DNA of 64,000 bases. It comes from an uncultured Thermoanaerobaculia bacterium (lineage in GTDB: Bacteria; Acidobacteriota; Thermoanaerobaculia; Thermoanaerobaculales; Sulfomarinibacteraceae). A program made the translations under genes and the position numbers. The notes beneath the pieces are model-generated. The model was not told where the DNA came from and did not search any database. It worked only from the letters and a program-made list of their open reading frames with translations. Shown here one piece after another: positions 2,996-54,485 of this stretch. How positions within the stretch are numbered: the stretch's first letter is position 1; the number at the start of each line of letters is the position of its first letter. The stretch lies in NCBI GenBank assembly GCA_964552395.1, contig CAZKGM010000003.1:50030-114029 (forward strand), written 5' to 3'.

Positions 2996-3412
2996 CTACC
3001 AGTCAGGAAAGGGGCGCTTGAGCCAGGTCCGGACCACGGCGTCGCGCTGGCCGCTCAAGAGATCGTCGGCCGCGGGGGTGCGCTGGACGTCGCCCTCCAC
3101 CTTCTTGAGCAGGAAGGCGAGCACAAGGACGATCAGCGACGGGAAGATCAGGTAACCCACGTCCGGGGGGTGAAGATCGCCGCGGGCGAGGCCGAAGAAG
3201 AACACCAGGATCGGCAGGCCGAGGAGCCCGATCTGTGCCAGCGCCGCATACATCTGATGCGCAGCCAGCCGCTTGAACCGCTCGAGCTCATGTGTCGACG
3301 CGATCACCTTCACCTCGCGCCGAAACCGTCCCAGCTCGAGACCGCCCCACAGCAGATTGACCAGCGCCAGCCCGAGCAGGCCGAGGATCACGTACAGCAG
3401 CTCCTCACGCAT
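2996..3412 (-). CDS. Hypothetical membrane protein (about 3 TM)
   Basis: 138 aa ORF with hydrophobic segments and a GGAGG-like RBS; same strand as its neighbours. Confidence 0.7.
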   Translation of the reverse strand: MREELLYVILGLLGLALVNLLWGGLELGRFRREVKVIASTHELERFKRLAAHQMYAALAQIGLLGLPILVFFFGLARGDLHPPDVGYLIFPSLIVLVLAFLLKKVEGDVQRTPAADDLLSGQRDAVVRTWLKRPFPDW

Positions 3413-3463: not shown

Positions 3464-6400
3464 CTACTGCGGCGGCACGCCCCGCCCGAGGGTGACGTAG
3501 AACCTGCCGCCAACCGTTGCCGGATCATCCTCGTACCCGAGGGCGTCAAAGTCCATCCGATGTCTCACCTCCGGAAAACGCGCCAGGGCCTCGTCCGGCA
3601 GTGTCGTTCCCCTGGCCGCCCGGTGACACCGCCGGCACTGGACTGCCTCGACGCTGTGGCAGTCGCCACAGCTCAGCGCCCTGTGGTCCGGCACCACCTC
3701 GTGGTGCACCGACGAGTAGCTCACGGTCTGGACGAAGGCATGGCGCCCGGAGTAGGGCAGGCCCATGCGCTCCATGCCGGTGCGGATCGCCGCCTGCCAG
3801 TCGAGGCCGCTCGAGGATCGATCCCAGAGCTCGGCCACGACCAACGTTCGGTTCTCCTCGTCAAACGGCTGGACCGCGGTGTGGCGCTTGAACGGGAAGA
3901 TCCGCGCCCGAGGGTTGCGCCTCTCCCCCACCGGGGCGCTGAGCACGACCGCCTTGGTGGGATCGATCCGATCCCCGGCCAGCGAGAGCGTGTGCGAGCC
4001 GTCGTACCAGAGGTAGACGGGCGTCACGTCCATGCCCCAGACGAGGGTACCGAACCTGGGATCATACGTCTGCATACCGCCGGGACCTCTCTCCACGCTC
4101 CTGTCCTGCCCGGCCGTGGAAAAGTCCTGGGCCAAGAGCGTGGGAGCCGTTCGTGCCAACGAGGGAATGTGGCAGGTCTCGCACGCCACGCTCTTGACGT
4201 GGTCGTCCAGGTGTCGGCTCAGGACCCCGGTCATACCGTGAGGCGAGGCGCCGTGGCACCTCTCACACTCGACCGTTCCTTCCACCGCCGGCACCAGAAG
4301 CGACCTGCCAGAGATCCTGTGGGCGACGGTGGTGTGGCAGTCCTGGCAACGCATGGCGAGAGCCCCCATGTGCACGTCGAGCTCCGCCGGCGGATCGGCC
4401 AGCGCCGGCTCGAGGTCCCCGTGCTTGGCGTTGGGGAAGCCGCCGCTCGAGAAGTGGCAGCCGCCGCAGGTCTGCCTGGACGGGCGCCCCACCGCTCTGG
4501 CGACGACCGCCAAATCTACGGTCGGATCGGGCATCCCGGCCGTGCCGGGGTCCTTCCGGTACAGGCCGGTCGTGTCATGGCACACCAGGCAATCGATGTT
4601 GTCTGCGTCGTTCAGGTCGAAGCCGGCGTCCGCCCAACCATAGCCGATGTGGCAGGCGGCGCACCGGCCCGGCTCCGTGCCGATCCCGAGGAAGTAGTTG
4701 CCGACGACACTGGTGAGGCTGACATCGACCCGGTGCTCGGAGCCAACGAGCGTCGGCGAGCGCCCTTTCCAGCTCCAGTGCGCGGTACCCATGATGTCCT
4801 CCCCGACATCCGCATGACAGGTCAGGCAGGTTTGGGTCACCTGTTGTGGGGCCGGCCGCTCGCCCAGCGCCACCAACGTCGAGTGGTCGGGCGTCCAGGG
4901 GTGGTGGCAAGCTTTGCAGTCGGCTGGGGCGTTGGCCATCCGGGTCTGCTTCTCGTGGCATCCGATGCACTGCCGGTGGTAGGCGCCCTTGAGGCCGATA
5001 CGGGACGGCGCGTCGGCCTCGTTCGGCAGGCCGTGGCAACGGGAGCAGCTCTGCGGCGGGTTGGAGGCCATGTTCTCGTGGCACGAAGCGCACGGCCCGC
5101 CCAGCCGAACGTCGATGGCCGCGTGAAGCGCCTTGATGTCCTCTCCGATGCGATCGTCCGCCGACATCGCGTAGCGGTGATGGCAGACACCGCAATCGCC
5201 ACCAGTGAGCGCGTCGTGGATCCGGTGCGCGAACCCCACGGGCTCGTAGTCGTCGGTCTTCTCATTGAGAATCGGGCTCTCGAGCAGGTAGAAGTTCTTG
5301 TAGGCCAGCGGTCGCTGCGGGTAGGCCGGACCCGGCAAGGCCGCCGCTTCGGCCTGCGTCATCTTGAGGCGATGGATCTCTTGCACGGTCTGCGCCGAGG
5401 CATGGAGCGCCTCCCCGTGGACGAAGCTGTAGAGCGCGACAAAACCGAGCAGGAAGAGAACGCCCACGGAACGGAAGACGAAACCAAGGCGCCGGGAGAT
5501 CGGAACCGGTGGCCCGACCAGCGAGGCGGGCGGCTCGGCGGCCCCCACCCGCTCCACCCACAGGACCGGGAAGAACGTGACGAACAGCCGGTAGAGGAAC
5601 ACGATCGTGCACACAACGAACAGCGTCAGGGCAATCTCGCCGATCGACGGGAAGTAGCGGTGGGTCTCATACGCAGGACGATAGCCCACGAGGAAGACGT
5701 TGATGCGGTTCATCACGACACCGAAGACCACCATCAGCGAGGCCGTGAGCAGCCATCCCGGGGATCTCCGCACGGGCTTCCACAGCAGGATAACGAACGG
5801 CACGATGAGGCCGATGACGACCTCCACCGCAAAGGCAATCGTGGTCCCGGGGTTGCTGACGAAGCTGATGGTTCCCAGCCTACTCAGCAGGTCGGCCGCC
5901 TTGGCCAGGGCATAGATGCCGATAAGGATCGGCACCTTTGTGGCAAGTCTCTCCAGGACGTCCATCTCGGGCTCCAGGCCCAGACTCTTGTGGGCCAGGA
6001 TGGACTCGACAATGAGCATGGGAAACCCAACCATGATGGCGGACAGCAGGAACAGGACCGGCAGGAAGGACGAGTACCAGATCGGGTCCAGCTTGGTCGG
6101 CGCGATCACCATCAGCGTGCCGAGCGAGGACTGGTGCATGCAGGACAGCACCACGCCGGCAACAATGAAGATCGGCAGCACCGCCCGGACAAAGGCCCGA
6201 GCCACCCGCACCGGCTCCTTCAGGCGCTCGAGCCAGGTGACGTCCCGGCTGTGCTCTTCCAGGTAGTCCCTAACGCCGCCCAGAACCGCCGGCGCCATCT
6301 CGATCGTCAACACGAGCAGGTACGCGACCACACAGATGCCCACCTCGAACAGCACCGAGTTACCCTGCCAGAAGAACACCGGCCGCCAGATGTTCCACCA

Positions 6401-6739
6401 GCGGCCAAGGTCGAAGATCAGGGCAACCGCCACGAACAGGTACCCGAGCCAGGCGGTGAGGATGGCCGGACGCAGCAGCCGCTTGAAGGAGTGTTGCCAG
6501 AAGATCTCGATCAGGGCCGCCGCCGTGAACCCGCCCGCCGCCAGCGCGACCCCGCAGGCGACGTCGATCGCGATCCAGATCCCCCACGGGTGCTGGTTGT
6601 CGAGGTTGGTCACGGCACCGAGACCGTTGAAAATCCGTCCGAGGCCGAACGCCAGGCCAACGCCCATGAAGACCATGAGGAGGATCGTCCCCGAGGTCAG
6701 GAACGGGACGCCGGTGCGGGAACGGGGCTCAAGCCTCAT
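3464..6739 (-). CDS. NrfD/HybB-type membrane anchor fused to a 14-CxxCH multiheme cytochrome c (c3-like 5-heme region plus OTR-like region)
   Basis: N-terminal PWGIWIAIDVACGVALAAGGF, FDLGR and HQSSLG (HybB/HmcC family). 14 CxxCH motifs counted. The C-terminal ~470 aa follows the octaheme tetrathionate reductase pattern (HWSW, GYGW, KHGDL, DVHM, PFKRH, DALGY). Confidence 0.88.
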   Translation of the reverse strand: MRLEPRSRTGVPFLTSGTILLMVFMGVGLAFGLGRIFNGLGAVTNLDNQHPWGIWIAIDVACGVALAAGGFTAAALIEIFWQHSFKRLLRPAILTAWLGYLFVAVALIFDLGRWWNIWRPVFFWQGNSVLFEVGICVVAYLLVLTIEMAPAVLGGVRDYLEEHSRDVTWLERLKEPVRVARAFVRAVLPIFIVAGVVLSCMHQSSLGTLMVIAPTKLDPIWYSSFLPVLFLLSAIMVGFPMLIVESILAHKSLGLEPEMDVLERLATKVPILIGIYALAKAADLLSRLGTISFVSNPGTTIAFAVEVVIGLIVPFVILLWKPVRRSPGWLLTASLMVVFGVVMNRINVFLVGYRPAYETHRYFPSIGEIALTLFVVCTIVFLYRLFVTFFPVLWVERVGAAEPPASLVGPPVPISRRLGFVFRSVGVLFLLGFVALYSFVHGEALHASAQTVQEIHRLKMTQAEAAALPGPAYPQRPLAYKNFYLLESPILNEKTDDYEPVGFAHRIHDALTGGDCGVCHHRYAMSADDRIGEDIKALHAAIDVRLGGPCASCHENMASNPPQSCSRCHGLPNEADAPSRIGLKGAYHRQCIGCHEKQTRMANAPADCKACHHPWTPDHSTLVALGERPAPQQVTQTCLTCHADVGEDIMGTAHWSWKGRSPTLVGSEHRVDVSLTSVVGNYFLGIGTEPGRCAACHIGYGWADAGFDLNDADNIDCLVCHDTTGLYRKDPGTAGMPDPTVDLAVVARAVGRPSRQTCGGCHFSSGGFPNAKHGDLEPALADPPAELDVHMGALAMRCQDCHTTVAHRISGRSLLVPAVEGTVECERCHGASPHGMTGVLSRHLDDHVKSVACETCHIPSLARTAPTLLAQDFSTAGQDRSVERGPGGMQTYDPRFGTLVWGMDVTPVYLWYDGSHTLSLAGDRIDPTKAVVLSAPVGERRNPRARIFPFKRHTAVQPFDEENRTLVVAELWDRSSSGLDWQAAIRTGMERMGLPYSGRHAFVQTVSYSSVHHEVVPDHRALSCGDCHSVEAVQCRRCHRAARGTTLPDEALARFPEVRHRMDFDALGYEDDPATVGGRFYVTLGRGVPPQ

Positions 6740-7736
6740 CGGCCTCTCCCTCTCCGGCGCGACCGTCGCTGCGGTCGCCGCCCGCCTCTCGTTCCCCCTC
6801 GGCCTTTCTCTCCTCGCCGATGGCCCGGCGCCAGTTGAACCACATCAGGCCGGCCAACCCCGCGTAGACCGCAACCGGAATAGCCCCGTACTTGAAGATG
6901 CCGTGCTGGATAGCCTCCGTGCGGCTGGGCGGCGGGGCGGTGGGAAGCGACAGCAGGCTGACCTCCTGCGGCGGCCGGCCGGTGAGGTACAACCACGACG
7001 TGCCCCCGACCTCCTCCTCGCCGTAGATGTGCGCCAGGTAGCGGTCCGGGCGCTTCGCGATCCGCTCCTTGGCCAGGAGCAGCAGATCCGCCCGCTTGCC
7101 GAACACCAGCGCCTCCGTGGGGCAGGCCGCCGCGCAGGCGGGGTTCGCGCCGGTTCCGGCCGCAACATCCGTGCACATCTCGCACTTGCGGACCCGCGGC
7201 TTCACCGGATCCCGGTACTCGTACGCGAGAATCTCGAACGGGCACGCCACCATGCAGTAGCGGCAGCCGATGCAGATCGTCGGGTTGTACACGACCGCGC
7301 CGTCCGCGGCCTTGACCATCGCGCCGACGATGCAGGCGGAGACGCACGACGGCCATAGGCAGTGCATGCACTGGAGCTTGGCGTAGGTCTGGCTCTGGTC
7401 ACTCTGGTCACGGGAGGGGGCGCCAGGAAACTGGTTCACGACCGTGAAGGCGTCCGCTGCGGGGCGCCTGAAGGTCCGGAACACGCCGCGGTCGGTGAAC
7501 GGCCGCTCCGGCCGCCGCAGTTTGTTGCGCCGGTTGCAGGCCTCCTCGCACTTGCGGCAGCCAATGCAGAGCGTGGTGTCCACCAACACGCCGACGACGT
7601 CCGGAGAGCTCTTTCGTCGGCTCGCCTTCCCGGTCTGGGCAACTGCAGGGAGAGCCGCAGCGGTCGCCGGGACCGCCCACCCTATCTCCAGCAACGCCCG
7701 TCTGCTCAGCTTCACGACGACCTCCCCGCCGGTCAT
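6729..7736 (-). CDS. HybA/HmcB-like 4x[4Fe-4S] protein with Tat signal
   Basis: SRRALL twin-arginine motif; CIGCRKCEEAC, CMHCLWPSCVSAC, CIGCRYCMVACP and KCEMC; C-terminal TM helix. Confidence 0.9.
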   Translation of the reverse strand: MTGGEVVVKLSRRALLEIGWAVPATAAALPAVAQTGKASRRKSSPDVVGVLVDTTLCIGCRKCEEACNRRNKLRRPERPFTDRGVFRTFRRPAADAFTVVNQFPGAPSRDQSDQSQTYAKLQCMHCLWPSCVSACIVGAMVKAADGAVVYNPTICIGCRYCMVACPFEILAYEYRDPVKPRVRKCEMCTDVAAGTGANPACAAACPTEALVFGKRADLLLLAKERIAKRPDRYLAHIYGEEEVGGTSWLYLTGRPPQEVSLLSLPTAPPPSRTEAIQHGIFKYGAIPVAVYAGLAGLMWFNWRRAIGEERKAEGEREAGGDRSDGRAGEGEADEA

Positions 7737-8030
7737 CCGCTCGTTCTGCGCTGTGGGTCTCTGATTTCATTCTATGGTTGTATGACGACAATAGCCATAG
7801 TCTTGGCACATTCACGGTCTCCCGGCTCATCCTGCCGGTAGCACGTCAACGACCCGGCGGGAAGGCAACGCCGCCGGTGTCAGTGCATCGCGCGGTGGAG
7901 CCACGTGGTGGTGAGCGGTGCGGGCCAACTGAATGATCCGGACCCTCGCTCTCTGCTGCGTGCGCTCCACTCCATCACGGTACTCCATGGGCTTCGTGCG
8001 AGGCACCCCACCAGCTCGGGCTCGCGAGAG

Positions 8031-9029
8031 TCACTCGAGGTTCGGGAAACGCGCGATGAGGTCCGAGACAGCTGCCATCGAACGCTCTTTGGTGAGATCT
8101 GCATCCACCTGGTAGGGAACAATCAGGACCACTTCGGAGGTGGCGGCGTCGATGACATAGAAGAGGAGCATCGCCCCTGACGAGGGCGCGAATACCGCCG
8201 GGTTGGAGATGGATGCGTACGAGGGATTCACGCCCTCGACAACGGCGCCCGCCAACATCGCCAGAACGTTGCCGACCTTCCGCCCCTTGGTCTCCGTTAC
8301 CGCTCGGCACCAGACGTACAGGAGGTACCGGCCGTCCCCGTCCTCGGGTCTCACCGCTTGCCGGACCTCGGCAAAGGCGTCAACCTCGTCGAGGAGCGGT
8401 GGGAGCGAACGGTATGCGAGCAGTCCCGGGCGGAGCTTGCGAAGGACGTCGTGCAGCGGCGCAGCGACCTGACCCCAAGCATCGAGCAGTTGCGGCGAGG
8501 CCGACCACGCGGCCTGTAGCCGTCCACCGGCGCCGGCAAGCCGCTCTGCAAGCTCCGTCCGGAGCAGCCCAGTCAGGCGTTCCGCCTCCAGTGGTGCGGG
8601 CTCGAGGTGACCCACGGCGCCCACACCGGTCTTCATCTGAAGCTCCACGTCCACCGGCATCAGGAGGTAGCGGCCCCTTCTTGCCGCCTCCTGATCGGGA
8701 GGTTCTCTGGGAACTCCAGGGATCGGCTCCAGCTCGAGATTGACCACCTCCGGCGACTGTTCGTCGAGCTTCGTCGTGGCGGGCTCGTAGCCACGCTTCT
8801 GCACCGTGACGTAGTGCGGCGTCTCCCCGAAGAACACAACCTTCGCGGTGCCCGGCGTCTCGCCGTCCGACTCGAGCAGCACCGAATCGTCGAGGCTCGG
8901 CTGCGAGTGCTCGACAATCAGCGCCCCCGCAGGCTCGGACACAACCGTGAACTGGCGACTGGTCCCACAACCCACCAGCGCCACGATCCCAGCCAAAGCC
9001 AACCAACAAACTCGTCTTTGTCGCGTCAC
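8031..9029 (-). CDS. Lipoprotein with PEGA-like N-terminal domain
   Basis: Lipobox LVGC; VSEPAGA...GETP...VQKRGY is a PEGA-like pattern; GGAGG RBS before the GTG. Confidence 0.7.
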   Translation of the reverse strand: MTRQRRVCWLALAGIVALVGCGTSRQFTVVSEPAGALIVEHSQPSLDDSVLLESDGETPGTAKVVFFGETPHYVTVQKRGYEPATTKLDEQSPEVVNLELEPIPGVPREPPDQEAARRGRYLLMPVDVELQMKTGVGAVGHLEPAPLEAERLTGLLRTELAERLAGAGGRLQAAWSASPQLLDAWGQVAAPLHDVLRKLRPGLLAYRSLPPLLDEVDAFAEVRQAVRPEDGDGRYLLYVWCRAVTETKGRKVGNVLAMLAGAVVEGVNPSYASISNPAVFAPSSGAMLLFYVIDAATSEVVLIVPYQVDADLTKERSMAAVSDLIARFPNLE

Positions 9030-9052
9030 GACACACCTCCTCCGCGATACCG

Positions 9053-9077
9053 GCGCTGCAGGCGCAGGCTGCAGCGC
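9053..9077. other. Intergenic hairpin, 9-bp perfect stem
   Basis: GCGCTGCAG-N7-CTGCAGCGC. There is no U-tract, so it is not called a terminator. Confidence 0.5.
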
Positions 9078-9092
9078 TGACCGAGCTCCTGA

Positions 9093-12000
9093 TCAGTTGC
9101 CGCCGATCCTCAGAATCTCGCCGAAGTCTCCGACGGCCCAGCACAGGTTGGAGCGCACGCAGTGCAACCCGAGAAGGCTCAGTCCCGTGGGGCTCGCCAC
9201 CGACGACCAGCTGGCGCCGCCATCCCCGGAGTGCACGATCGTGCCGCGATCTCCAACCGCCCAGCCGTTCGCCGCGGTAGGAAACGCGACATCGTGGAGA
9301 TCGCCGCTGACTCCCACGCCCCTGGCCGTCCAGGTCGTCCCGCCGTCCAGGGTGTGGAAGAACCCGCCTTCGCCGGCAATCCAGCCCTCCGAAGAGCTCG
9401 TGAAGACGACGTGCATCAGGTGCCAGGGGCAGCTGGTGTACCCACAGTCGAGCTCCTGTTGTGCCCAGCTCTTGCCGCCGTCTGCAGTGTGGATGATTGT
9501 GCCGAGCCCTCCGACCGCCCAGCCGTTCTGACTGTCCGCAAAGTGAAGCCCACCCTGAACGATGGCGAAGCCAATGGCCAGGCCGCCCTCGATTCCGGTA
9601 GGCACCCAGGCCCAGTGCGCACCCCCGTCCTCGGTCTTTGCGAGGAAGAGAGATTGTCCTCCGGAGGTGTCATCGTAATGACCCTTATCCAACGCCCAGC
9701 CGTGCTGGCCGTCGAGGAACTGGACGTCGAACAGCTCCGGTGCCAGGCCGTCCGCCAGCTCCTGACCTTGCTCCTCCCAGTGGAGGCCGCCGTCGGAGGT
9801 GTGGAGGATCGCCCCGTGAGATTTCCAGCCGGCCTCGTAGAACGTCTCCGAGCTTCCGGTCGCCCATCCGTGGAGAGCATCCACGAAGCTCACGGCGTCG
9901 AGCCGGAAGTAGCTGAACAGGTTGTCCATCGGCGGCGCCTTCTCGTACTGTTCCGCCCAGCTCGCACCGCCGTCCGAGGTGTGAAGGATGACCTGACCCC
10001 AGAGCTCCGGGGCGAAAGTCCTCCGTCCCACCGCCCAGCCGTTGTATTGATCGATGAAGAAGACGTCCTCGAGTTTGTAGTGAGCGCTGATGTACGCCTG
10101 CTTGAAGAGGTTGTCGCCGTGCGGCCAGCCATACTCCCCCCACGCGTCCTCGGATCGCACAACATAGTCATGATCTCCCACCGCGATGGCGCGGTCGCCG
10201 GTGAGGGCGAGGCCGAACAGGCCCTCGCTGTCGTGGCGCTCTTGAATGACCTTCTCCCAGGTTGTGCCACCGTCTACTGTACGGAACACCGGCGGGCCCC
10301 ATGCCGCGATGTAGTTGGCGCCCATGATGTAGGCTCGGTTGGCATCGATCGCCTCGACATCCCACAGCAGGTCGAAGAAGTGGCCAGGATCCTGCCGCTC
10401 CCAGGTCGATCCTCCGTCCGTGGTGTGGAAAGTCGCGCCGCCGATTTCTCCCGAGCTGGTCACGAATCCCACCGCCCAACCGTGTTCGACGTCGACGAAG
10501 TCAACATCCGTCAACGAGACCGGGAGATCCGGGGCATACTGCTCGGCCCACGTCGCGCCGCCGTCGGTCGTGTGGTAGACAACCATCCGGTGCTCCGGCC
10601 AGGGGTCGTCACCGACATACCGGGCCCCGACCGCCCAACCGGTCTTGGTGTCGATGAACTGCACTCCGTGCAGGATGCTGGCGCCGGCGGGCAGGCTCTG
10701 CTCGTTCCATGTCTGCCCCCCGTCGTCGGTGTGCCAGACGCTCGCCTCCCAGTTGTCCTCATCACCTACGAAGTCCCAGTGCGTCGGTCGAACGGCTGTG
10801 ATCCACCCATGCTCGTCATCGGGAAACGAGACGGCCCGCAGGCCATCTGTCGTGGCGATGGTCTGACGGGTCCAGGAGCCACCACCGTTCGAGGTGTGCA
10901 GGATGAGCCCACCCCCACCCACTGCCCAGCCGTTGTTCTGTCCGACGAAGACCACTGCGTTGAGGCCGGCAGTCTGGCCGACGGCGTGTTCACTCCAGCT
11001 CGCGCCGCCGTCATCGGTCTTGAGAAGCGTCGTCACGTACTGCTTCTCCGCCGGATCCCAGTGTGCCTCACCCACCGCCCAACCCGTAGTCGAGCTCAGC
11101 ATGTCCACGTCGCGCAGGTAGTACGAAACCTCCTCGAACTGCCTGGTCACCGTGAGCGCTCCAGCCGGCTGCAGCTCCGGCATGAAGACCGGATCTCCGG
11201 TCCGATTGTCGATGACCGAGGCGTAGGCGAAGAAGGCCCCCGCCGATGTGTTGGTGGTGAGCACGGCGTAGCCGTCCTCAACGGCGGCCGAGGTCACCGT
11301 ACGGAAGACCCGATCGAGCTGCCGGAACTCCAGCGGCCGCAAGGCCGTACGGCTGGAGGGAACTCTCCCCAGCAGGGCCCCTGAGCCGTCGTACAGATCG
11401 ACGGCAATCTGCAGTGGCGCCGCGGTGGCGTTGACGATGCCGATGTTGGTCCGGAAGCCGGTGCTCGACGCGGTGCTTTCCCGCAGCTGGATCAGGCGCA
11501 CCGCCACGCCGGCCGGGATCGCCGCCGCTGTGGCTCGGCCCGGCACGAGCTGACCATAGGTGCCGTCCGCGGTTTCGTTGTAGGTCCGACTGCTCAGCTG
11601 AAGAGGACAGCCCGACGGGGTCACCCTGAGAGCGGCTGCGCCGGAGAACGCGAACATCGACGCCAACACGTCTTTGTAGCGGACGGCCAGTCCGGGGTCG
11701 AGCTGGAAGCTCCTGGAATCCGGCAACGAGTTGTCCTGGTCCCGAGCGAGCAGCTCGATCGTGTAGGCGCACTGGGCGGGCCCAGGGTTGAGGAGCTCGA
11801 GATCCGTCCGCCAGCTCGTGCCGCCGGCACCAGTGACGTGTGCCGCGGCCGGAATCACCAGGCTGCCACCCGCAGGCGTTCGCAGGGCGGGCAGGAAAAC
11901 CGGATCGCCGGTGCGATTATCGATCACCGAGGCGTAGGCAAGAAAACGCTCCGACCCTCCCGTGAACTGTGCCTCCACCACGGCGTAGCCATCGGAAACC

Positions 12001-32912: not shown

Positions 32913-33230
32913 TCAGACGCAGCCAGTCGGCTTGGGAAGACCGGCAACCTTGCAGGCGCCCTTCGCCGGGCCGGACGGGAACAGCTCGTAGATCCGCTTC
33001 AGGTTGAAACCCGTTTCCTTGCAGAGCTTGCGGATCATTGGTGCGACCCCGAACTGCAGGTAGTACTCGCGAAGATAGTTGACAACCTTCCAGTGCTCCT
33101 CGGTCAGGTCATCGACCCCCTCGGTCGAGGCCAGGGCATGCGCGACGAGCTCGTTCCAGCCCTCCGGCTCCTGCATGAAGCCGTCCTCGTCGACCTCGAT
33201 GGATACCTCACCCTGTGTGAATGTTGGCAT
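32913..33230 (-). CDS. dsrC: Sulfur carrier DsrC
   Basis: DEDGFM, ELFPSGPAKGACKVAGLPKPTGCV with both C-terminal Cys present. Confidence 0.95.
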   Translation of the reverse strand: MPTFTQGEVSIEVDEDGFMQEPEGWNELVAHALASTEGVDDLTEEHWKVVNYLREYYLQFGVAPMIRKLCKETGFNLKRIYELFPSGPAKGACKVAGLPKPTGCV

Positions 33231-38284: not shown

Positions 38285-39361
38285 CTAGTGCTTCAGCTGG
38301 GTCGACCGCTTGTAGGTCTCCCCGGCATGCCTGAAGTCATCGATGTGGTACTTGGTGAACGGAATCCCGGTGATGTCGAAGAACCGGGGCCAGCCGATGC
38401 GCTCGATCCACTCACCCATCCGCTCATGCTTCTGAGCGTTCTCGGCATACACGTTGACGAGCTTGACCACGGCGTCCACAACCTCCGGCCACCGGGGCGG
38501 GTTGTTGGGGATGAAGGGGATGGCCAGCTTGGAGAACATGGGCTCGTGGCGGGCGTTGGAGACCTTGCCGCCGACCCAGATGGAGATGCCGTCGGCCTCG
38601 GCGTTGTTGATCTGCATCGCCGGGCAGACGGTGTAGCAGTTGCCGCAGTACATGCACTGCGCCTCTTCGACCTCCACCGACTGCTTGCCGTCGATGGTGG
38701 CCGGACGGATGGCGCCGGTCGGGCACGAGGAAACGAGCGTCGGGATCTCACACATCTTCGGCAGGTTCTCGTGATCGATCTTGGGCGCCTTGCGATGGAT
38801 TCCCAGCACCGAGATGTCGGAGCAGTGGACGGCGCCGCACATGTTGAGGCAGCAGGCGAACGCGATCCGCAGCTTCGCCGGCAGGTTCATGTTGACAAAG
38901 TGCGGGTACAGCTCGTCCATGATCGCCTTGACCACGCCGGAGGCGTCGGTCGCTGAGGAGTGGCAGTGAACCCAGCCCTGGGTGTGGACGATCGATGAGA
39001 TCGCGTTGCCGGTGCCGCCGACCGGGAAGCCGAGCTCATGCAGCTCCTCCTTCAAGGCGGCGATCTTCGACTTGTCGGTGAGCAGGAACTCCACGTTGTG
39101 GCGGCTCGTCCAGCGGAGATGCCCGCCACAGTACTTGTCCGCGAGCCCCGCGAATGCTCGAATTGTAACGGTGCTCAGAAGACGTGGGGTACCCGCCCGC
39201 ACCGTGTAGAGCTTGTCACCCGACTCCGCCACATGAACCATCACACCCGGCTCGAGGATCTCGTGGTAGGCCCACGTGCCGTAGTTCTTCTTGATGATTG
39301 GCGGAAGGAACTGCCTGAAGTCCGGGGGACCGATGTCGGTCTTTCTCTCTGCTACAGCCAT
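38285..39361 (-). CDS. dsrB: Dissimilatory sulfite reductase beta subunit
   Basis: [62 protein letters not shown]. Confidence 0.97.
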
Positions 39362-39377
39362 GGATTCCTCCCTTTCC

Positions 39378-40571
39378 TCACTGATCCTCGTCTTCGAGCT
39401 CGTCCTCGAAGAAGATGTAGGGGTTGGTACGCGGATGGGCGACCATCTCGGGCGTCGGCTCGAGACCGATCTCCTCGAGGAAGTTCCCCAGGCCAACGCG
39501 CTGGATAAACTCGCCGACGCGCTCGCGGTTCTTGCCGTACTCGCCCCAGAAGTCCCAGATCGCCTCGGCGAGCTCCTTGAGGTCCTCGTACGGTGGCTTC
39601 ATCTCGAGGAACGGCACGAACACCGCCGACAGCAGAGCGCCGCCGATGATCGGCGCCTTGGCGCCAATCAGGATCGTCGCGCCCCGCTCCTTGCCGGGCC
39701 TCAGCGCCTTCGGCATCACGTTGATGCAGTGCATGCACTTGACGCACTCGGAGTTGTCGATGTCGAGGCTCTTGCCGTCCCACTGGATGCAGTGCGTCGG
39801 GCAGAGCCTGCAGATCTCGTTCCGGATATCGACGCCGTCCGCCGCGTACTTCTGCACCTGCTCCTGGTCGACCTGGATGTCGTCCTTCCAGGTGCCTATG
39901 ATCGACATGTCCGAGCGGGCCACGGAGGCCACGCAGTCGTTCGGGCAACCGGAGAACTTGAACTTGTACTTGTACGGGAACGCCGGCCGGTGCAGCTCGT
40001 CCTGGTAGCTGTGGGTGATGTCGTTGCAGGCATCCAGAGTGTCGTAGCACGCCCACTCGCAGCGGCCGGGGCCGACGCAGCAGCTCGGCGTCCGCACGTC
40101 GGAGCCCGAGCCGCCGAGGTCGAAGCCGTGCGCGGTGAGGTCGGCAAAGCAGGGCTCCAGCGCCTCGGTCTTCGACCCCAGGAAGATGATGTCGCCGGTG
40201 GAGCCGTGCATGTTGGTCAGACCGGAGCCGTGCCGCTCCCAGATATCGCACAACGTACGAAGCACCTCGGAGGTGTAGAACCAGCCGGCGGGCTGGTTGA
40301 CGCGGTAGGTGTGGAACGCCGCAACCTCCGGAAACTCCTCCGGTAGGTCGGAGTACCGGCCGATGACGCCGCCGCCGTAGCCCATGACGCCAACCAGGCC
40401 GCCGTGCTTCCAGTGGCTGATCTTGTCCTCAAACGACCGCTCGAGCTGGCCGAGCGTGTCGCGGGCCATGGGGTTTGTCTCCGCGCTTTTCTTGATCTCC
40501 TTGACGAAGCTCGGCCACGGCCCTTTGTCGAGCTCGTCAAGCAGCGGGGTTGCTCTATTCTTCTCACTCAT
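39378..40571 (-). CDS. dsrA: Dissimilatory sulfite reductase alpha subunit
   Basis: [71 protein letters not shown]. Confidence 0.98.
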
Positions 40572-40589: not shown

Positions 40590-42173
40590 TCAGATCTTTG
40601 ACCAATAGCCTGAGAAGACTACTGTTGACAGGAAGTAGCCCAGAGGCACATTGACGAGCACCCCGGCCGTGAACGCCCAGAACGGCTTGAGGCCGAAGTT
40701 GGCGAGCTCGGCGAACCGCGTCGACAGCCCGATGCAAAGGAAGCAGAGCACGAAAGCCCACGACCGCAGCTTCTTCACCGGCGCGATGACCTTCGGGTTG
40801 AGCTCGCTCTCGAACCAATCGGACTTGTACCTCAGCTGGGTGAGCGCCCAGCGCTGACCCTCGCTGGTCGCAACGCCGCGAAGAACGTTGAACTCCTTCA
40901 GCGACATGTGACCCGCGAACGTGATCACGCCCTTCTCGGCCTGGTACTGGAACTTCCCGGCCAGTGACTCGGGCACAGCGTAGGTGGAGAAGTCGGCGCT
41001 GTACTTCGTCTTCCCGGCCTTCGACGAGAAGGTCCCGTCCACCTTGGCCGTCCCGATGTATCCGGGCGGCGGCGCCGCCGAGACCGCGCTCATGATGACC
41101 GAGGCCGCGAAGAACCCGAGAACGAACTTCGGGAACCTCTCCCAGATCACCCCCGCCCCGACGCTCGAGCGTGTTCCCTCCGTATTGCGCTCCCAGAACA
41201 TCACCGACACTACCGACAGGAGTAGGCACCAGATGCCGATCCAGATGTCGCGGCCGATGACCTTCATCAGCGTGAAGGTGTTGATCGGCGAGTCGCCGAA
41301 CTTGGTGGCGAGCTCGGCGACGACGGCGAACCCGGCCGCGTCCGCGAACTCGGACGTACCGATCCAGGCGCCCGCTTCACCGGGACTGATGGTGTGCGGA
41401 ACCATGGCCTTACAGACGAATGTCAGGGTGAAGATCATCACGATTGCCCAGATCGAGACGACGCCGATGCCGATTGCGATATGGTCCTTGTCGGCACGTA
41501 CTGAACCGCCGACGGCAATCGAGGCTGACACGCCGCAAACTGCCCCGCCGGCGCCGAGAACAGCGCCGAAGCGCGGATCCAGCTTGAACACCTTGGTCGC
41601 AACCAGGAAGATCACCAGCCACGTCGTGACCGCGACGATCGTCGCCTGGACGAAGGCGATCGGACCGGCCGAGAAGATCAGGGTCAGCGGCAGTGTGGCG
41701 CCGAGCAGGACGATACCGGTCTTGATGTAGTACTCGGTGCGCAACGAGGTCTTGAACCACTCGGGCACCTTGATGATGTTGCCGATGATAAGGCCGATGA
41801 TGAGCGCGAGCAGCGGCGCGCCGAGATCGTAGCGCTTCATCACCTCCCAGCCCGCGAGGTAGAAGACCACGAGCGAGCCGAGGAAGAGAATGATGTAGCC
41901 AGGAATGAACTCCGACAGTTTGCGGCCCATGATCTTCATCGAGATCGTGAACACGACCCCGAAGACGAGGAAGACCACCGCGACGCCACCAATGTGCTTG
42001 GAAAAGTCAGCGCCCAGCTGGGAGAGGTTGCCCCACGTCCCAGGAGTGACCGCCCAGCCCTTGATTGTCGCGCCGAAGGCATAGGTGATGAGCGCAAGCC
42101 CCATCAGGCCGAGGCCCAGCCACACCGCCCACCAGTCCTCCGTCTTCCAAAGCTTTTCCAACGCCTTTCCCAT
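40590..42173 (-). CDS. YeiH/PSE-family putative sulfur-oxyanion transporter
   Basis: EDWWAVWLG, EYYIKTGIVLLGA, GGAVCGVSA, WIGTSEFADAAG, KVIGRDIWIG, IGLSTRF. Stop lies 19 bp before the dsrA start. Confidence 0.88.
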   Translation of the reverse strand: MGKALEKLWKTEDWWAVWLGLGLMGLALITYAFGATIKGWAVTPGTWGNLSQLGADFSKHIGGVAVVFLVFGVVFTISMKIMGRKLSEFIPGYIILFLGSLVVFYLAGWEVMKRYDLGAPLLALIIGLIIGNIIKVPEWFKTSLRTEYYIKTGIVLLGATLPLTLIFSAGPIAFVQATIVAVTTWLVIFLVATKVFKLDPRFGAVLGAGGAVCGVSASIAVGGSVRADKDHIAIGIGVVSIWAIVMIFTLTFVCKAMVPHTISPGEAGAWIGTSEFADAAGFAVVAELATKFGDSPINTFTLMKVIGRDIWIGIWCLLLSVVSVMFWERNTEGTRSSVGAGVIWERFPKFVLGFFAASVIMSAVSAAPPPGYIGTAKVDGTFSSKAGKTKYSADFSTYAVPESLAGKFQYQAEKGVITFAGHMSLKEFNVLRGVATSEGQRWALTQLRYKSDWFESELNPKVIAPVKKLRSWAFVLCFLCIGLSTRFAELANFGLKPFWAFTAGVLVNVPLGYFLSTVVFSGYWSKI

Positions 42174-42224
42174 GTCCTCCTCCTTCTCCCCCGCGCGACA
42201 TCCACTCCTCCCCGTCGCGCAGAC

Positions 42225-42240
42225 TGCAACCCATGTGCCA
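42225..42240 (-). promoter_or_regulatory. sigma54 promoter of the yeiH-dsrABD...dsrC operon
   Basis: Reverse complement TGGCAC-ATGGG-TTGCA, a perfect consensus; AT-rich tract at about 42265-42295. Confidence 0.88.
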
Positions 42241-42334
42241 GTCGGGCGTTCCCGCAACCGACATGGAAAAGCTTGAAGATGCAGTTATTTATGGAGCCAA
42301 GCCACGATGCTGGCTGCGCGACGCCAGCTGGCCC

Positions 42335-42690: not shown

Positions 42691-44304
42691 CTAGTGGAAC
42701 TCCCACTCCAGGAAACCCTCGGGGATGTCGCTCATCGCGTTCACGATCAGCTCCACCAGGCCCCCGTACAGGATGCCGCAGCGGTCCCAGGCATCGTAGT
42801 AGGTCAGGAGGTCCCTCATCTGGCCCTTGCAGTTGGAGCACGGCGCGCACACATACTTGTGCGTCTCCGGCTCGATGCAGTCGGCGAACGCCTCCAAGAT
42901 CTGAATGAACTTGACCCGGCCCGCGACCCGGGTTCGCCAGTCCGGGAAGTTGAGAGACTGGCAGACGGCGAAGCCCGACCCGCCGCCACAGCAGAAGTTG
43001 TCGACGCCGTGGGGCTCCATCTCGCGGAAACGGGGCGCGATCTTGGCGAGAATGTTGCGCTGGGGCTGGATGATGCCCATCGAGCGCGTGATGTTGCACG
43101 GGTCGTGCAGGGTGACCGGGAAGTCGTTCCGCGAGGGGTCGAGGGGCAGCCTGCCGCTCAGGACCAGGTCTTCGAGTGTGACCAGGCAGCTCTCGGTGCG
43201 CACCCGCAGCGGGTCCGGGATGAGGCGGTCGGCGGCCGCCATCGTGGCCTTGTGGGCGTGGCCGCACTCACCCATCATGATCTTCTTCACCCCGAGCTTC
43301 TTGGCCACCTCATAGTGCTTGAGCGCAATCCGCGAGAACTGGATGTCATCGTAGAAGAGGCCGTAGTTGACGGAGTCGTACCCCACGAGCTCCGACGACA
43401 GCGTCCATTTGATGCCTGCCGCCTCGAGGATGATCGCGAACGCCTGCAGGTTCTCCGGCCATGACAGGAACTCGCCCGCGTTGTGCAGCACCAGGTAGTC
43501 GGCGCCCTCGACATCGAAGGGGATCTTGATGTCGAGCTTGGTCTTCTCCGTAATATCTTCTTCGGCGAACTCCATGATGTCCATCAGGCCGGCCGGATTG
43601 AGGCCGGTGGAGGAGCCCACCGCCATCTGCTTGACCGTCCCCAGCTCGTGCAGCTCGGGCATGGCGATTCCCAGCTCCTGGCTGAACAGCTTCCTGATCT
43701 CCCGCGTGAGGAGGCCGTTGTCGATCCCGATCGGGCACTGCTGGGCGCAGCGGCGACACAGGGTGCAGCGGTATGACAGCTCGGCGAGCTTGACCAGCGT
43801 TTCCCAGTCGAGCTCGATGTCGTTGCCGCGCAGCTTCGGAAACAGGTTGCCGCCTGGCTTGATGTAGCGGTCGACGATCTTGCGCAGGATCTCGGCGCGG
43901 AACGTCGGACGATACATTTCCATGTGCCCGGACGCCGTGTAGATCGGGCACGCCTCGGCGCAGGTCTGGCACTTGACGCAGTTCTCCATGGACACGAGAA
44001 GCGGCTGCAGGAAGGTCCAGTTGTTCTCCTTGGTCAAGAGCTTGCGCAAGCCGCTGAGGAACCCGGCCACCAGGCGCTCCTTCTCCTCCTCGCTTTTCGG
44101 CACCGGGATCTGGGCGCCGCACACACCATCCGGACCGACCTCGATCCTCGTGCGCTGGTCCTCGGTGATCTCCTTGATCGGCTCATCCACCCAGTCCTCG
44201 TAAGGAGGAGGCAGCGGCAGCAGGCGGGCAGGGTCGACGTCCTCGTTCTCGGCGAGAAAACGGAGCAGGTCTCCCTGCGATGCGATCCTCGGCCTCTCCA
44301 TCAC
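42691..44304 (-). CDS. DsrK/HmcF-like FeS protein with CCG domain
   Basis: CVKCQTCAEACP, CTLCRRCAQQCP, GECGHA, HDPCN, CCGGGSG, CSNC. Confidence 0.88.
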   Translation of the reverse strand: MMERPRIASQGDLLRFLAENEDVDPARLLPLPPPYEDWVDEPIKEITEDQRTRIEVGPDGVCGAQIPVPKSEEEKERLVAGFLSGLRKLLTKENNWTFLQPLLVSMENCVKCQTCAEACPIYTASGHMEMYRPTFRAEILRKIVDRYIKPGGNLFPKLRGNDIELDWETLVKLAELSYRCTLCRRCAQQCPIGIDNGLLTREIRKLFSQELGIAMPELHELGTVKQMAVGSSTGLNPAGLMDIMEFAEEDITEKTKLDIKIPFDVEGADYLVLHNAGEFLSWPENLQAFAIILEAAGIKWTLSSELVGYDSVNYGLFYDDIQFSRIALKHYEVAKKLGVKKIMMGECGHAHKATMAAADRLIPDPLRVRTESCLVTLEDLVLSGRLPLDPSRNDFPVTLHDPCNITRSMGIIQPQRNILAKIAPRFREMEPHGVDNFCCGGGSGFAVCQSLNFPDWRTRVAGRVKFIQILEAFADCIEPETHKYVCAPCSNCKGQMRDLLTYYDAWDRCGILYGGLVELIVNAMSDIPEGFLEWEFH

Positions 44305-45194
44305 TTTCCCCCCTTCGTGTCGTGCTCTGGCACCTCGGTCACGACCTCGGCCCAGCTGCGGCCGGTCTGGATGTGCGGCGCCGACCAGTCCATCCCGTAC
44401 TGCAGCGCCGCCTCCAGACGAGATGAGAACGGGCCTCCGGCCACGTACGGCCGATCATCCCACCGCACCTTGTGGTAGGTAAAGTACTTGGCGAAGAAGT
44501 GCACCATCCGCGTGTAGGGCATGTAGAGAACGAACAACGCACCCAGCGCCATCTGGAGCCCGAGGAGCGGCGTGACATCGAGTGGCTTCAAGCGCAGCAC
44601 GGAGGCGACCGCTGCGCCCGCGCCCGCCAGCCCATCGGTGACCACCACGGCCGTGCTCGCCGCCCCGAACGCCAACAACAGCAGGAGGTTGAGGCGATCC
44701 AGCGGCGTCGTGTACGGCCTCAGCTTGGGGCTCGACGAGCGCTCGATCAGGAGCACGGTTGCGCCCACGAGCAGCAGGCCGCCGCCGAAGCCGGCCAGCC
44801 ACGGGAGCACGATGCTCAGGATCGCCGGCGACCAGCCCAGCCCCTGTACGACGAGGCCCACCGTGGTGACGACGAGGAGGTAGAGCCCCCAGTGGAACGG
44901 CATCGATCCCCACCACAGGCTGCGGTTGTTCTTCCACACGCCCTTCAGCAGGACGATCTCCTCACCCATGGCGCTCACCTCTCCGACCAGGCTCGTCCGC
45001 CGCTTGTGGGTCCACCAGTCCTTTTCCTCGAGGTAGGAGCCGCCGTGATCCCGGCGCGGCTCGTGTGCCACGGGGTACAGATCCCACCTCAGATGCATCG
45101 GCGTCAGCGCATAGTGAAGCCCCTTCATGACACATCCCGCGATGAACCCGATAACTGCCACCCAGACCCACGCCAGCAAGCCGATCCCCGCCAT
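44301..45194 (-). CDS. DsrM/NarI-like membrane cytochrome b
   Basis: RWDLYPV, FHWG, PYTRMVHFF, about 5-6 TM; translationally coupled to the DsrK-like gene. Confidence 0.82.
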   Translation of the reverse strand: MAGIGLLAWVWVAVIGFIAGCVMKGLHYALTPMHLRWDLYPVAHEPRRDHGGSYLEEKDWWTHKRRTSLVGEVSAMGEEIVLLKGVWKNNRSLWWGSMPFHWGLYLLVVTTVGLVVQGLGWSPAILSIVLPWLAGFGGGLLLVGATVLLIERSSSPKLRPYTTPLDRLNLLLLLAFGAASTAVVVTDGLAGAGAAVASVLRLKPLDVTPLLGLQMALGALFVLYMPYTRMVHFFAKYFTYHKVRWDDRPYVAGGPFSSRLEAALQYGMDWSAPHIQTGRSWAEVVTEVPEHDTKGGK

Positions 45195-45240
45195 GAAACC
45201 TCCCCGGCCCGGCACCCGGCCGGACACCGCCGTTCGACCG

Positions 45241-45256
45241 AGCAAGTATCGTGCCG
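45241..45256 (-). promoter_or_regulatory. sigma54 promoter of the dsrM/K-like pair
   Basis: Reverse complement CGGCAC-GATAC-TTGCT. Confidence 0.82.
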
Positions 45257-45393
45257 TCTCAGCATCGGCACCACTCGGCGGCTGCGGCGAACCAGAGTGC
45301 ACGCAAGTGGCGCGGCACCCAGCCGTTGCCGACCGCTCGTCGCGCCTTCACGATCCAGCGCCTCGCCTGCAGACCGCCGCCGCCGGGCAAGCA

Positions 45394-54474: not shown

Positions 54475-54485
54475 CTTCAAACCCC

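Follow-up and report, generated by a model that had tools for sequence, protein, structure and literature searches.

An NrfD-type membrane domain fused to a 14-heme cytochrome with an octaheme tetrathionate reductase-like head in an uncultured Thermoanaerobaculia bacterium

A 64,000-nucleotide stretch of contig CAZKGM010000003.1 (positions 50,030 to 114,029 of the forward strand; assembly GCA_964552395.1), derived from an uncultured Thermoanaerobaculia bacterium (Acidobacteriota) and referred to below as the window, contains an ATG-initiated open reading frame (ORF; 3464..6739, minus strand) encoding a 1091-aa protein that combines an NrfD-type membrane domain with 14 heme-binding motifs. This is a genuine fusion of three modules, namely (i) a 10-helix NrfD domain of the HybB/HmcC type, (ii) a c3/HmcA-like pentaheme module and (iii) an octaheme module with the fold of octaheme tetrathionate reductase (OTR), extended by an extra C-terminal heme. 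Together with an iron-sulfur (FeS) protein encoded directly upstream, the fusion would, in our assessment, probably form a quinone-periplasm complex similar to Hmc, Nhc and Nrf, whose OTR-derived head serves mainly as an electron conduit or performs chemistry other than that of OTR.

Domain make-up of the fusion protein

A motif count identified exactly 14 CxxCH sequences in the protein, at aa 516, 550, 565, 591, 608, 638, 693, 717, 758, 798, 825, 853, 1024 and 1035, and neither CxxCK nor longer variants of the heme motif in the 1091-aa chain. All 14 fall within the last 576 residues, outside the membrane part; fewer than 0.1 would be expected by chance according to a rough estimate based on the Cys and His content. 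Thirteen of them are invariant across 55 aligned homologs. The hydropathy profile indicates ∼11 hydrophobic helices within the first 445 residues. The ORF, the motif count and the hydropathy thus bear out the preliminary description of this DNA, according to which a single NrfD-cytochrome chain carries an additional transmembrane (TM) helix and 14 CxxCH motifs. The following segments were distinguished, using, among other data, a structural model generated by AlphaFold2 (AF2):

5555..6739, minus strand: NrfD membrane domain of the 10-helix HybB/HmcC/ActC type, aa 1-395 (Pfam, NCBIfam, AF2, Foldseek)
5417..5554, minus strand: cytoplasmic linker (aa 396-417) and 11th TM helix (aa 418-441) (hydropathy, AF2, positive-inside count)
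5240..5416, minus strand: periplasmic linker, aa 442-500, weakly conserved and modelled with low confidence (55-homolog alignment, AF2)
4880..5239, minus strand: pentaheme c3/HmcA/NhcA-like module, aa 501-620, with the CxxCH motifs at 516, 550, 565, 591 and 608 (Pfam, search of solved structures)
3647..4879, minus strand: OTR-fold octaheme module, aa 621-1031, with the CxxCH motifs at 638, 693, 717, 758, 798, 825, 853 and 1024 (TIGR04315, 1sp3)
3467..3646, minus strand: 14th heme motif CRRCH (aa 1035-1039) and conserved C-terminal tail (motif count, alignments)

The membrane part is recognized by the Pfam model NrfD (PF03916) at aa 43-353 with 75 bits (cutoff 25.8). The N-terminal 395 residues are nearest to HybB (NF008133; 293 bits, cutoff 450) and HmcC (NF045714; 272 bits, cutoff 550), both scores being below the equivalog cutoffs. 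The Pfam model Cytochrom_CIII (PF02085) matches aa 549-612 with 40.6 bits (cutoff 22.9), and other matches were obtained with Cytochrome_C7 and, at aa 871-1029, with Cytochrome_cB. The pentaheme module therefore passes the c3-type family model (PF02085), and bis-His ligation of its hemes is predicted. The NCBIfam model TIGR04315 ("tetrathionate reductase family octaheme c-type cytochrome") covers aa 618-1031 with 433 bits (cutoff 375).

In a search of solved structures, aa 630-1029 were aligned with the OTR of Shewanella (1sp3; E 1.8e-96), including all eight octaheme motifs, aa 528-613 with the C-terminal c3-like domain of the 16-heme HmcA (1h29; E 1.2e-17), and aa 516-613 with the 9-heme NhcA (1ofw, 19hc). 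Pfam, TIGR04315 and these alignments agree with the "5 + 8 + 1" arrangement of hemes proposed earlier. A single-sequence AF2 run (pLDDT 36.8) was discarded, and a model built from an alignment was used instead; its mean pLDDT is 66.5, and most of the membrane part and of the OTR part reaches 70-90. Comparison of the C-terminal part with 1sp3 by Foldseek gave E 1e-26, TMt 0.79 and 35% identity.

The C-terminal tail is strongly conserved (…DF.ALGY..DPA..GGRF…GRG.PP) and has no counterpart in the aligned part of Shewanella OTR. The CRRCH motif of heme 14 is kept in both clades that were compared, and the CxxCH motif at aa 550 is absent from the Desulfobacterales clade. Apart from the motifs, the pentaheme module contains eight invariant or near-invariant His residues for five hemes, and the whole heme region contains 20 conserved non-motif His for 14 hemes, which is enough for all hemes to be bis-His coordinated. 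At aa 1050 (3590-3592) the fusion has Glu in place of a His that is found in 93% of the clade and is likely to be the ligand of heme 14, and it carries His1059, which is missing in relatives.

The fused gene and its split relatives

A long ORF of this kind could be an artefact in which separate nrfD and cytochrome genes were joined by a frameshift, by the loss of a stop codon or by chimeric assembly, and split versions of the same modules do exist in other genomes. This explanation is extremely improbable. The identical 1091-aa protein is encoded on 13 contigs from several independent assemblies (one a Logan run, others JGI metagenomes), and a search of 5.8 billion proteins identified more than 120 clusters of 1084-1110 aa with 51-61% identity and the same Pfam domain set. 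These fused clusters come from metagenome-assembled genomes (MAGs) labelled Acidobacteria, Acidobacteriia, Thermoanaerobaculia, Binatia and Methylomirabilota. When clustered at 50%, the full-length architecture corresponds to about four to five clusters, and shorter NrfD + c3-like fusions are also numerous at this level. The columns of a 55-sequence alignment average 67% identity, and both the linker and the 11th helix hold invariant residues (R324…P391, Y437, H441). In addition, the GC content at third codon positions is coding-like (0.75-0.91) in every segment, including the junction. A frameshift or misassembly at the NrfD-cytochrome junction, which was one concern raised when the gene was noticed, is effectively excluded by the repeated contigs, the fused homologs, the third-position GC content and the invariant linker residues. 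In one Terriglobia MAG (locus L013, 7983-11280) the homolog is interrupted, appearing as two overlapping ORFs of 771 and 392 aa, which probably reflects a frameshift or sequencing error of that assembly.

The distribution of fused and split forms was examined by scanning for relatives with one genome per species. This identified 551 relatives, and the best 80 loci were classified: 25 are fused, 37 are split, and the remaining 18 contain NrfD with different cytochromes. The fused loci originate from Holophagales, Thermoanaerobaculia, Terriglobia, Polarisedimenticolaceae, Myxococcota, a MAG labelled Fibrobacteraceae and a subclade of Desulfobacterales MAGs. The split loci, cultured Desulfobacterales among them, carry the same modules in the same order, spread over two or three neighbouring genes. 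A hybA-like gene is followed by nrfD (∼400 aa) and then by a gene for a 13-heme cytochrome (680-712 aa) in Desulfatibacillum alkenivorans DSM 16219 and Desulfobacter curvatus DSM 3379, and in Desulfosarcina alkanivorans PL12 the cytochrome is further split into a 5-heme c3-like and a 7-8-heme OTR-like protein. The assumption that NrfD anchors and octaheme cytochromes are normally separate polypeptides applies to characterised systems, but in metagenomes the fused form is common and occurs beside the split one, as among the 80 classified loci.

The separate cytochromes of the split relatives start with their own signal peptide or anchor, exactly at the position of helix 11 in the fused forms. 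The simplest history of the gene would thus be the loss of the nrfD stop codon, by which the export signal of the cytochrome was turned into a TM helix.

Alternative architectures built on the same NrfD core were also observed (loci L069, L073, L075 and L079; proteins P0126-P0130, P0137 and P0147). They include NrfD joined to a 13-heme c3-type cytochrome with no OTR module (L069; 775 aa), NrfD followed by a 21-heme cytochrome (L075) and apparent HybA-NrfD fusions (L073, 704 aa; L079, 880 aa; P0137; P0147). Fusion events seem to have occurred repeatedly within this module family.

In the fused Desulfobacterales subclade (L014-L027), which retains the lysine of the OTR active site discussed below, the fusion gene is followed by genes for a ∼110-aa monoheme cytochrome c and a Tat-exported PhsA-like molybdopterin oxidoreductase (575 bits, cutoff 694) that lacks dedicated FeS and NrfD genes (e.g. 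L017:5128-7338 and L022:9962-10303). The presence of these two genes after the fusion hints at a periplasmic sulfur-compound reductase as the enzyme served by the module in some lineages. A divergent gene for a PAS/sigma-54 activator is located upstream of the module in 27 loci, and such a regulator is present in Desulfobacterales relatives.

Topology and the membrane domain

In the AF2 model, aa 16-389 form ten helices and aa 416-459 one long helix. Foldseek matched the membrane part with ActC of alternative complex III (6btm_C, 8k9e_C, 6f0k_C) at TMt 0.65-0.69. NrfD members of this ActC-type, 10-helix group, including HybB and NhcC, have both termini in the cytoplasm (PMC8076601), and an 11th helix is therefore required to export a C-terminal fusion. 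The predicted cytoplasmic loops of the protein contain 21 Lys and Arg residues versus 6 in the periplasmic ones, and the means for the 55 homologs are 21.6 and 5.3, respectively. Covalent heme attachment occurs only outside the cytoplasm. The positive-inside counts, the ActC-type fold with cytoplasmic termini and the signal peptides or anchors that the split relatives carry at helix 11 all lead to the same predicted topology, N-in, 11 TM helices, C-out, with the 14 hemes in the periplasm. The role originally ascribed to the extra helix, that of placing the heme chain in the periplasm, agrees with these three sets of data. Two of the invariant residues, Y437 and H441, are located at the outer end of helix 11.

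The N-terminal part shares 30% identity with HybB of Escherichia coli. Replacement of R89, Y99, E148 or H184 in HybB impairs coupled H2 oxidation (PMC8076601 citing Lubek et al. 2019), and the residues aligned with them in the fusion (R90, Y100, E147 and H202) are invariant in the 55 homologs. Since all four are preserved, the membrane domain looks like a functional NrfD subunit bearing a proton pathway, and not a mere anchor. The homologs also share a conserved loop on the predicted P side (T44-N45-L46…W52-G53). The domain is predicted to contain a quinone/quinol site and no redox cofactor.

The FeS partner gene and the local neighbourhood

The gene directly upstream of the fusion encodes the putative partner protein:

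6729..7736, minus strand: HybA/HmcB-like periplasmic protein with four [4Fe-4S] clusters, 335 aa (Pfam, NCBIfam, HybA alignment)

This protein has a twin-arginine motif SRRALL (S11-R12-R13-A-L-L), 16 Cys residues arranged as four Cys4 cluster motifs and, on the C-terminal side, a TM helix at ∼aa 283-302 that serves as tail anchor. It matches Fer4_11 (62.9 bits) and HmcB (NF045715; 310.8 bits, cutoff 420), comes just below the cutoff of HybA (NF008134; 260 bits, cutoff 263) and is 32% identical to E. coli HybA from end to end. The stop codon of the FeS gene and the ATG of the fusion gene overlap by 11 nt, with a purine-rich stretch just 5' of the ATG, and the fusion gene is translationally coupled to the FeS gene. 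A hybA-like gene lies directly upstream of the fusion or nrfD gene in every related locus for which upstream DNA is available, and the two-gene module with a Tat-exported HybA-like FeS protein, as first described for the window, is therefore a conserved unit.

Besides the FeS gene, no other conserved neighbours were found in the clade of the window. The genes surrounding the module, none of which is conserved beside homologs, encode a 138-aa membrane protein with a weak TIGR04222 match (2996..3412, minus strand, downstream), a 332-aa ORF without a family match (8031..9029) and a 1222-aa BNR/sortilin-repeat protein (the last two within 8031-12761, minus strand, upstream), as well as HlyD/ABC proteins. 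The identical gene on other contigs of the same population is flanked by the same genes for the 138-aa, 332-aa and 1222-aa products, which are missing beside homologs in other genomes.

The 294-nt intergenic region upstream of the FeS gene (7737..8030) contains no match to the sigma-54 promoter TGG-N9-TGC, and no sigma-70-like site was found there. An inverted repeat, CTATGG-N17-CCATAG (7772-7800), is located in an AT-richer patch of this region, ∼40-65 nt upstream of the hybA-like start, and may be the site of a regulator.

The altered catalytic heme site of the OTR-like head

The catalytic heme of Shewanella OTR is attached by a normal CxxCH motif and ligated by a lysine of a neighbouring helix, the motif His being swung away (PMC13562315, PMC12285233). 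The corresponding positions in the fusion are:

4649..4663, minus strand: CAACH, aa 693-697, motif of the OTR catalytic heme, heme 2 (alignment)
4715..4717, minus strand: Leu675, aligned with the catalytic proximal ligand Lys56 of Shewanella OTR (pairwise alignment)

In the pairwise alignment with 1sp3, the position of Lys56 is occupied by Leu675. The "G-K" sequence is kept in most of ∼60 representatives of the OTR family, including standalone octahemes, the cytochromes of the split Desulfobacterales and distant fused proteins such as P0121 and P0124, and is replaced in the clade of the window by S/G-L, occasionally with F or V. Among the 120 closest homologs, ∼105 have Leu and 3 have Lys at this position. 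Both Cys residues of heme 2 are replaced in 26 of the 120 (e.g. FSQLH, TSLFH), with His697 invariant and the other 13 motifs intact. The equivalent of Cys64 ("NNFC"; aa 683, 4691-4693) is Phe683 in the fusion, and Cys is kept in ∼88 of the 120 homologs. Of the 20 conserved non-motif His residues mentioned above, H669, H843 and H1012 are absent from Shewanella OTR. The loss of the lysine and of the heme-2 Cys residues indicates selection on the other 13 hemes and the fold, and not on a Lys-ligated catalytic heme. The OTR-derived head is more probably an electron conduit or docking platform, or the site of chemistry unlike that of characterised OTR, than a catalyst of tetrathionate or nitrite reduction at heme 2.

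The competing view, that the protein is a terminal reductase in which the OTR head is catalytic with a His-ligated active heme (a menaquinol oxidoreductase for tetrathionate, nitrite, hydroxylamine or another small oxyanion), is in our opinion rather unlikely. In its favour, the head passes the TIGR04315 cutoff and has the OTR fold, and NrfC/NrfD-type modules do serve octaheme and pentaheme catalytic cytochromes in Nrf and Mcc (PMC8076601). Tetrathionate induces the standalone otr gene of marine Acidobacteriota (PMC8528874), the host has a dissimilatory sulfur metabolism, heme 2 of the fusion is still CxxCH, and NrfA enzymes of the CxxCH type function with His ligation (PMC12285233). Against it, the signature lysine is lost in nearly the whole set of close homologs, yet kept in most other branches of the OTR family, and the homologs devoid of both heme-2 Cys residues have kept all the other motifs, as would be expected if selection did not act on heme 2. 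The Cys beside the site is Phe in the fusion, and the acidobacterial otr gene induced by tetrathionate encodes a different, standalone and Lys-bearing protein with ∼32% identity.

Several points weigh against the conduit interpretation and should be set beside this evidence. The OTR fold is large (∼410 aa), well conserved and complete with its beta-rich C-terminal subdomain, which exceeds the needs of a pure wire and hints at a retained catalytic or docking role. Like the fusion itself, 94 of the 120 nearest homologs keep heme 2 as CxxCH, and catalysis could still take place at a five-coordinate heme 2 with a His ligand, as in NrfA of the CxxCH type. The AF2 model is of moderate overall quality and cofactor-free, with a pLDDT below 50 in the c3-like part. 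Finally, the catalytic lysine is a residue which we take to be Lys56 of Shewanella OTR ("RGKKNS"), a number reportedly used by Mowat et al. (2004) and combined with the chain index of 1sp3; PMC13562315 and PMC12285233 confirm only the ligation by a neighbouring-helix lysine.

Proposed electron pathway

What is observed is the architecture with its conservation, topology, partner gene and altered heme site; the order of electron transfer, the proton coupling and, most of all, the direction of flow and the physiological partner are inferred. According to this proposal, the fusion and the FeS protein would assemble into a complex of two polypeptides on the plan of Hmc/Nhc, NrfABCD or MccACD. The 11th helix, presumably the former signal peptide or anchor of the cytochrome, would lead the chain from the cytoplasmic C-terminus of NrfD to the periplasm. 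The NrfD domain would provide a quinone/quinol site near the periplasmic face, with a proton pathway and no cofactor. Electrons would then pass from this site through the four [4Fe-4S] clusters to the c3-like hemes, and further through the OTR-like hemes and heme 14 to a periplasmic partner or substrate. The clusters would hand electrons to the pentaheme module, which is homologous to the part of HmcA/NhcA that works with HmcB/NhcB, and the invariant C-terminal tail (…ALGY..DPA..GGRF…) may serve for docking. The complex was initially named a quinol:heme-wire complex; the term "wire" stands, as the lost catalytic Lys fits it better than a reductase, but "quinol-oxidising" is an assumption about the direction of electron flow.

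Electrons might also flow in the opposite direction, from periplasmic donors (soluble cytochromes, or a hydrogenase or formate dehydrogenase acting via c3-type carriers) to menaquinone, feeding the DsrMK pool. We consider this a minor possibility. The nearest families of the membrane and FeS components are HmcC/HybB and HmcB/HybA, respectively, and the proximal heme module is most similar to the C-terminal domain of HmcA and to NhcA. Such complexes have been described as periplasm-to-quinone reductases (PMC8076601, PMC4287179), a direction proposed for Nhc, Hmc, Qrc and Hyd-2. The presence of dsrAB, dsrC and DsrMK-like genes in the window, and of DsrA and fusion homologs on a single 6.35-Mb contig, is in line with this direction. 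On the other hand, the 64-kb window contains neither a periplasmic hydrogenase nor a periplasmic formate dehydrogenase with a Tat signal, nor a c3 gene near the module, and the fusion family is also common in Binatia, Methylomirabilota and Myxococcota, which are not known to reduce sulfate. Moreover, no OTR-derived head is known to act as an electron-collecting module.

According to the name given by NCBI to several homologs, the protein would belong to a Ni/Fe hydrogenase as its membrane "cytochrome b" subunit. This reading can practically be dismissed: HybB is the best full-length NCBIfam match of the N-terminal part, but its score is below the cutoff (293 versus 450 bits), no HybC/HybO-like or other hydrogenase genes are present in the 64-kb window or in the best 80 related loci, and the fused cytochrome occupies the place that the hydrogenase has in Hyd-2.

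Comparison with known systems

The module resembles the Hmc and Nhc complexes in three components: the periplasmic multiheme cytochrome is of the c3 type, the periplasmic FeS protein (HmcB/NhcB) has four clusters, and the NrfD subunit (HmcC/NhcC) has 10 helices. Unlike in these complexes, the cytochrome is covalently joined to NrfD via an extra helix and includes an OTR-fold octaheme module. No HmcDEF- or NhcD-like genes are adjacent to the fusion gene; DsrK/HmcF-like and NarI-like genes are located 35 kb away, beside dsrAB. In the Hmc/Hyb equivalog tests, the scores for HybB, HmcC and HmcB were all below the cutoffs.

The head of the fusion has the same fold as OTR of Shewanella oneidensis (1SP3, TIGR04315) and eight CxxCH motifs in the same order. 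OTR is a soluble protein with a signal peptide, whereas the fused head sits behind 11 TM helices. The catalytic heme of OTR is Lys-ligated, in contrast to the Leu of the fusion and nearly the whole clade, with Phe in place of the neighbouring Cys in the fusion. The extra 14th heme and the conserved tail are further differences, and part of the clade lacks the Cys residues of heme 2.

The inner-membrane quinol oxidases CbcL and ImcH of Geobacter are precedents for a single polypeptide in which a membrane part that interacts with quinone is joined to a multiheme c domain in the periplasm, feeding periplasmic or extracellular acceptors. The membrane part of CbcL is a diheme b-type protein of the HydC/FdnI kind and that of ImcH is NapC/NirT-like, neither being a cofactor-less NrfD with an FeS partner.

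The HybA-HybB pair of E. coli Hyd-2 resembles the module in its full-length identity (30-32%), the Tat signal and tail anchor of HybA, the 10-helix HybB and the four shared residues, and differs in having a hydrogenase as the partner instead of a fused cytochrome. In NrfABCD and MccACD, an NrfD quinol module and an NrfC-type FeS protein likewise feed periplasmic multihemes, with the pentaheme NrfB placed ahead of the catalytic NrfA and with MccA catalytic (PMC8076601). These systems differ from the fusion module by an 8-helix NrfD/MccD, by separate polypeptides and by catalytic cytochromes of other families with intact motifs (CxxCK; CX15CH + Cu).

The NrfCD clusters of Melioribacter and MBNT15, in which FeS/NrfD genes adjoin a multiheme cytochrome instead of a molybdoenzyme, have been read as quinol:cytochrome reductases and proposed to act in Fe(III) reduction (PMC3534657, PMC9386147). 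Loci related to them were recovered in our scan (L068-L074). Their cytochromes are encoded by separate genes and are ∼377 aa long, with 13 hemes and no OTR module.

Two other candidates were considered and rejected. The Ohc complex is not the closest known system, as OhcC is described as a heme-b membrane protein and not as NrfD. The published acidobacterial otr gene (PMC8528874) is not the gene described here, since neither the window nor any of the 80 loci contains its qPCR primers. Both qPCR primers of this tetrathionate-induced otr of Ca. Sulfomarinibacter were found in another sequence, JGI contig Ga0224513_10002410 (L107:1-480, minus strand). Its product is an OTR of the classical standalone kind, in which the G-K and Cys residues are conserved and a cleavable signal peptide is present; it is ∼32% identical to the fusion and placed on a different branch.

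Sulfur-metabolism genes in the window

The window contains a set of genes of dissimilatory sulfur metabolism:

32913..33230, minus strand: dsrC
38285..39496, minus strand: dsrB (514 bits, cutoff 341.5)
39378..40571, minus strand: dsrA (591 bits, cutoff 393)
40590..42257, minus strand: YeiH-like putative sulfate exporter
42691..44304, minus strand: DsrK-like CCG/FeS protein (325 bits, below the cutoff of 400)
44301..45302, minus strand: NarI/DsrM-like protein

The host is an organism with dissimilatory sulfite reductase. No dsrJOP genes were seen beside the dsr genes of the window, which also encodes a rhodanese and several flavin/FeS oxidoreductases. The closest named relatives of DsrA come from Acidobacteria/Acidobacteriota MAGs, and homologs of both DsrA and the fusion are present on the 6.35-Mb sequence mentioned above, a complete JGI contig. 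No genes for another multiheme cytochrome, a hydrogenase or an outer-membrane conduit were seen in the 64 kb, and the window itself thus supplies no partner for the fusion module.

A further group of genes (49441-56612, minus strand) comprises those for a NuoF-like protein extended by additional ferredoxin domains, for a NuoE-like protein, for a molybdopterin protein similar to NuoG and the alpha subunit of formate dehydrogenase, and for a flavoprotein of the GltD/HdrA kind that contains CCG domains (NF045663, 542 bits). Near dsrAB (35741-37480, minus strand), another GltD-like protein is encoded, an FeS flavoprotein of the NAD(P)-binding type. The Nuo-like and GltD-like genes look like a soluble, NAD(P)H/formate-linked module for electron bifurcation or confurcation.

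Significance of the fusion

A 2021 review of the NrfD family covers separate-subunit complexes only and mentions no fused form (PMC8076601). No description of an NrfD-multiheme fusion of this kind was found in the full-text literature that was searched, which does not prove its absence from the literature. One NrfD-like protein of a sulfate-reducing acidobacterium was assigned by phylogeny to the hydrogenase subunit "HydB" (PMC10564751). Public annotations name homologs of the fusion either "tetrathionate reductase" or "Ni/Fe-hydrogenase cytochrome b subunit". Metabolic reconstructions would be misled by either name, for example towards H2 use or tetrathionate respiration. The family occurs abundantly among uncultured Acidobacteriota, Thermoanaerobaculia, Binatia, Myxococcota and Desulfobacterales.

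Modules of the NrfD type are the standard link of anaerobes between the quinone pool and periplasmic redox enzymes. The covalent fusion of NrfD with a cytochrome fixes both stoichiometry and geometry and, being compact, would lend itself to structural studies of an old problem, the coupling of electrons and protons in NrfD subunits that have no cofactor. The systematic loss of the catalytic Lys, together with the loss of the heme-2 Cys residues in some members, looks like a natural conversion of an enzyme fold into a conduit or a new active site. We rate the value of the fusion as a structural and bioenergetic model, and for the correction of annotations, as moderate to good.

More tentatively, the two-gene module may represent a class of respiratory gateway in the inner membrane that has so far escaped recognition and that is widespread in Acidobacteriota and in other phyla of sediments and soils. 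In such a gateway the proton-coupled quinol site of NrfD would be hard-wired, within a single polypeptide, to a 14-heme chain, and the loss of the Lys-ligated catalytic heme would have made the OTR head into a conduit or adapted it to new chemistry. In Acidobacteriota with dsrAB, such a gateway might provide an outlet similar to CymA, ImcH or CbcL, leading to periplasmic or extracellular acceptors.

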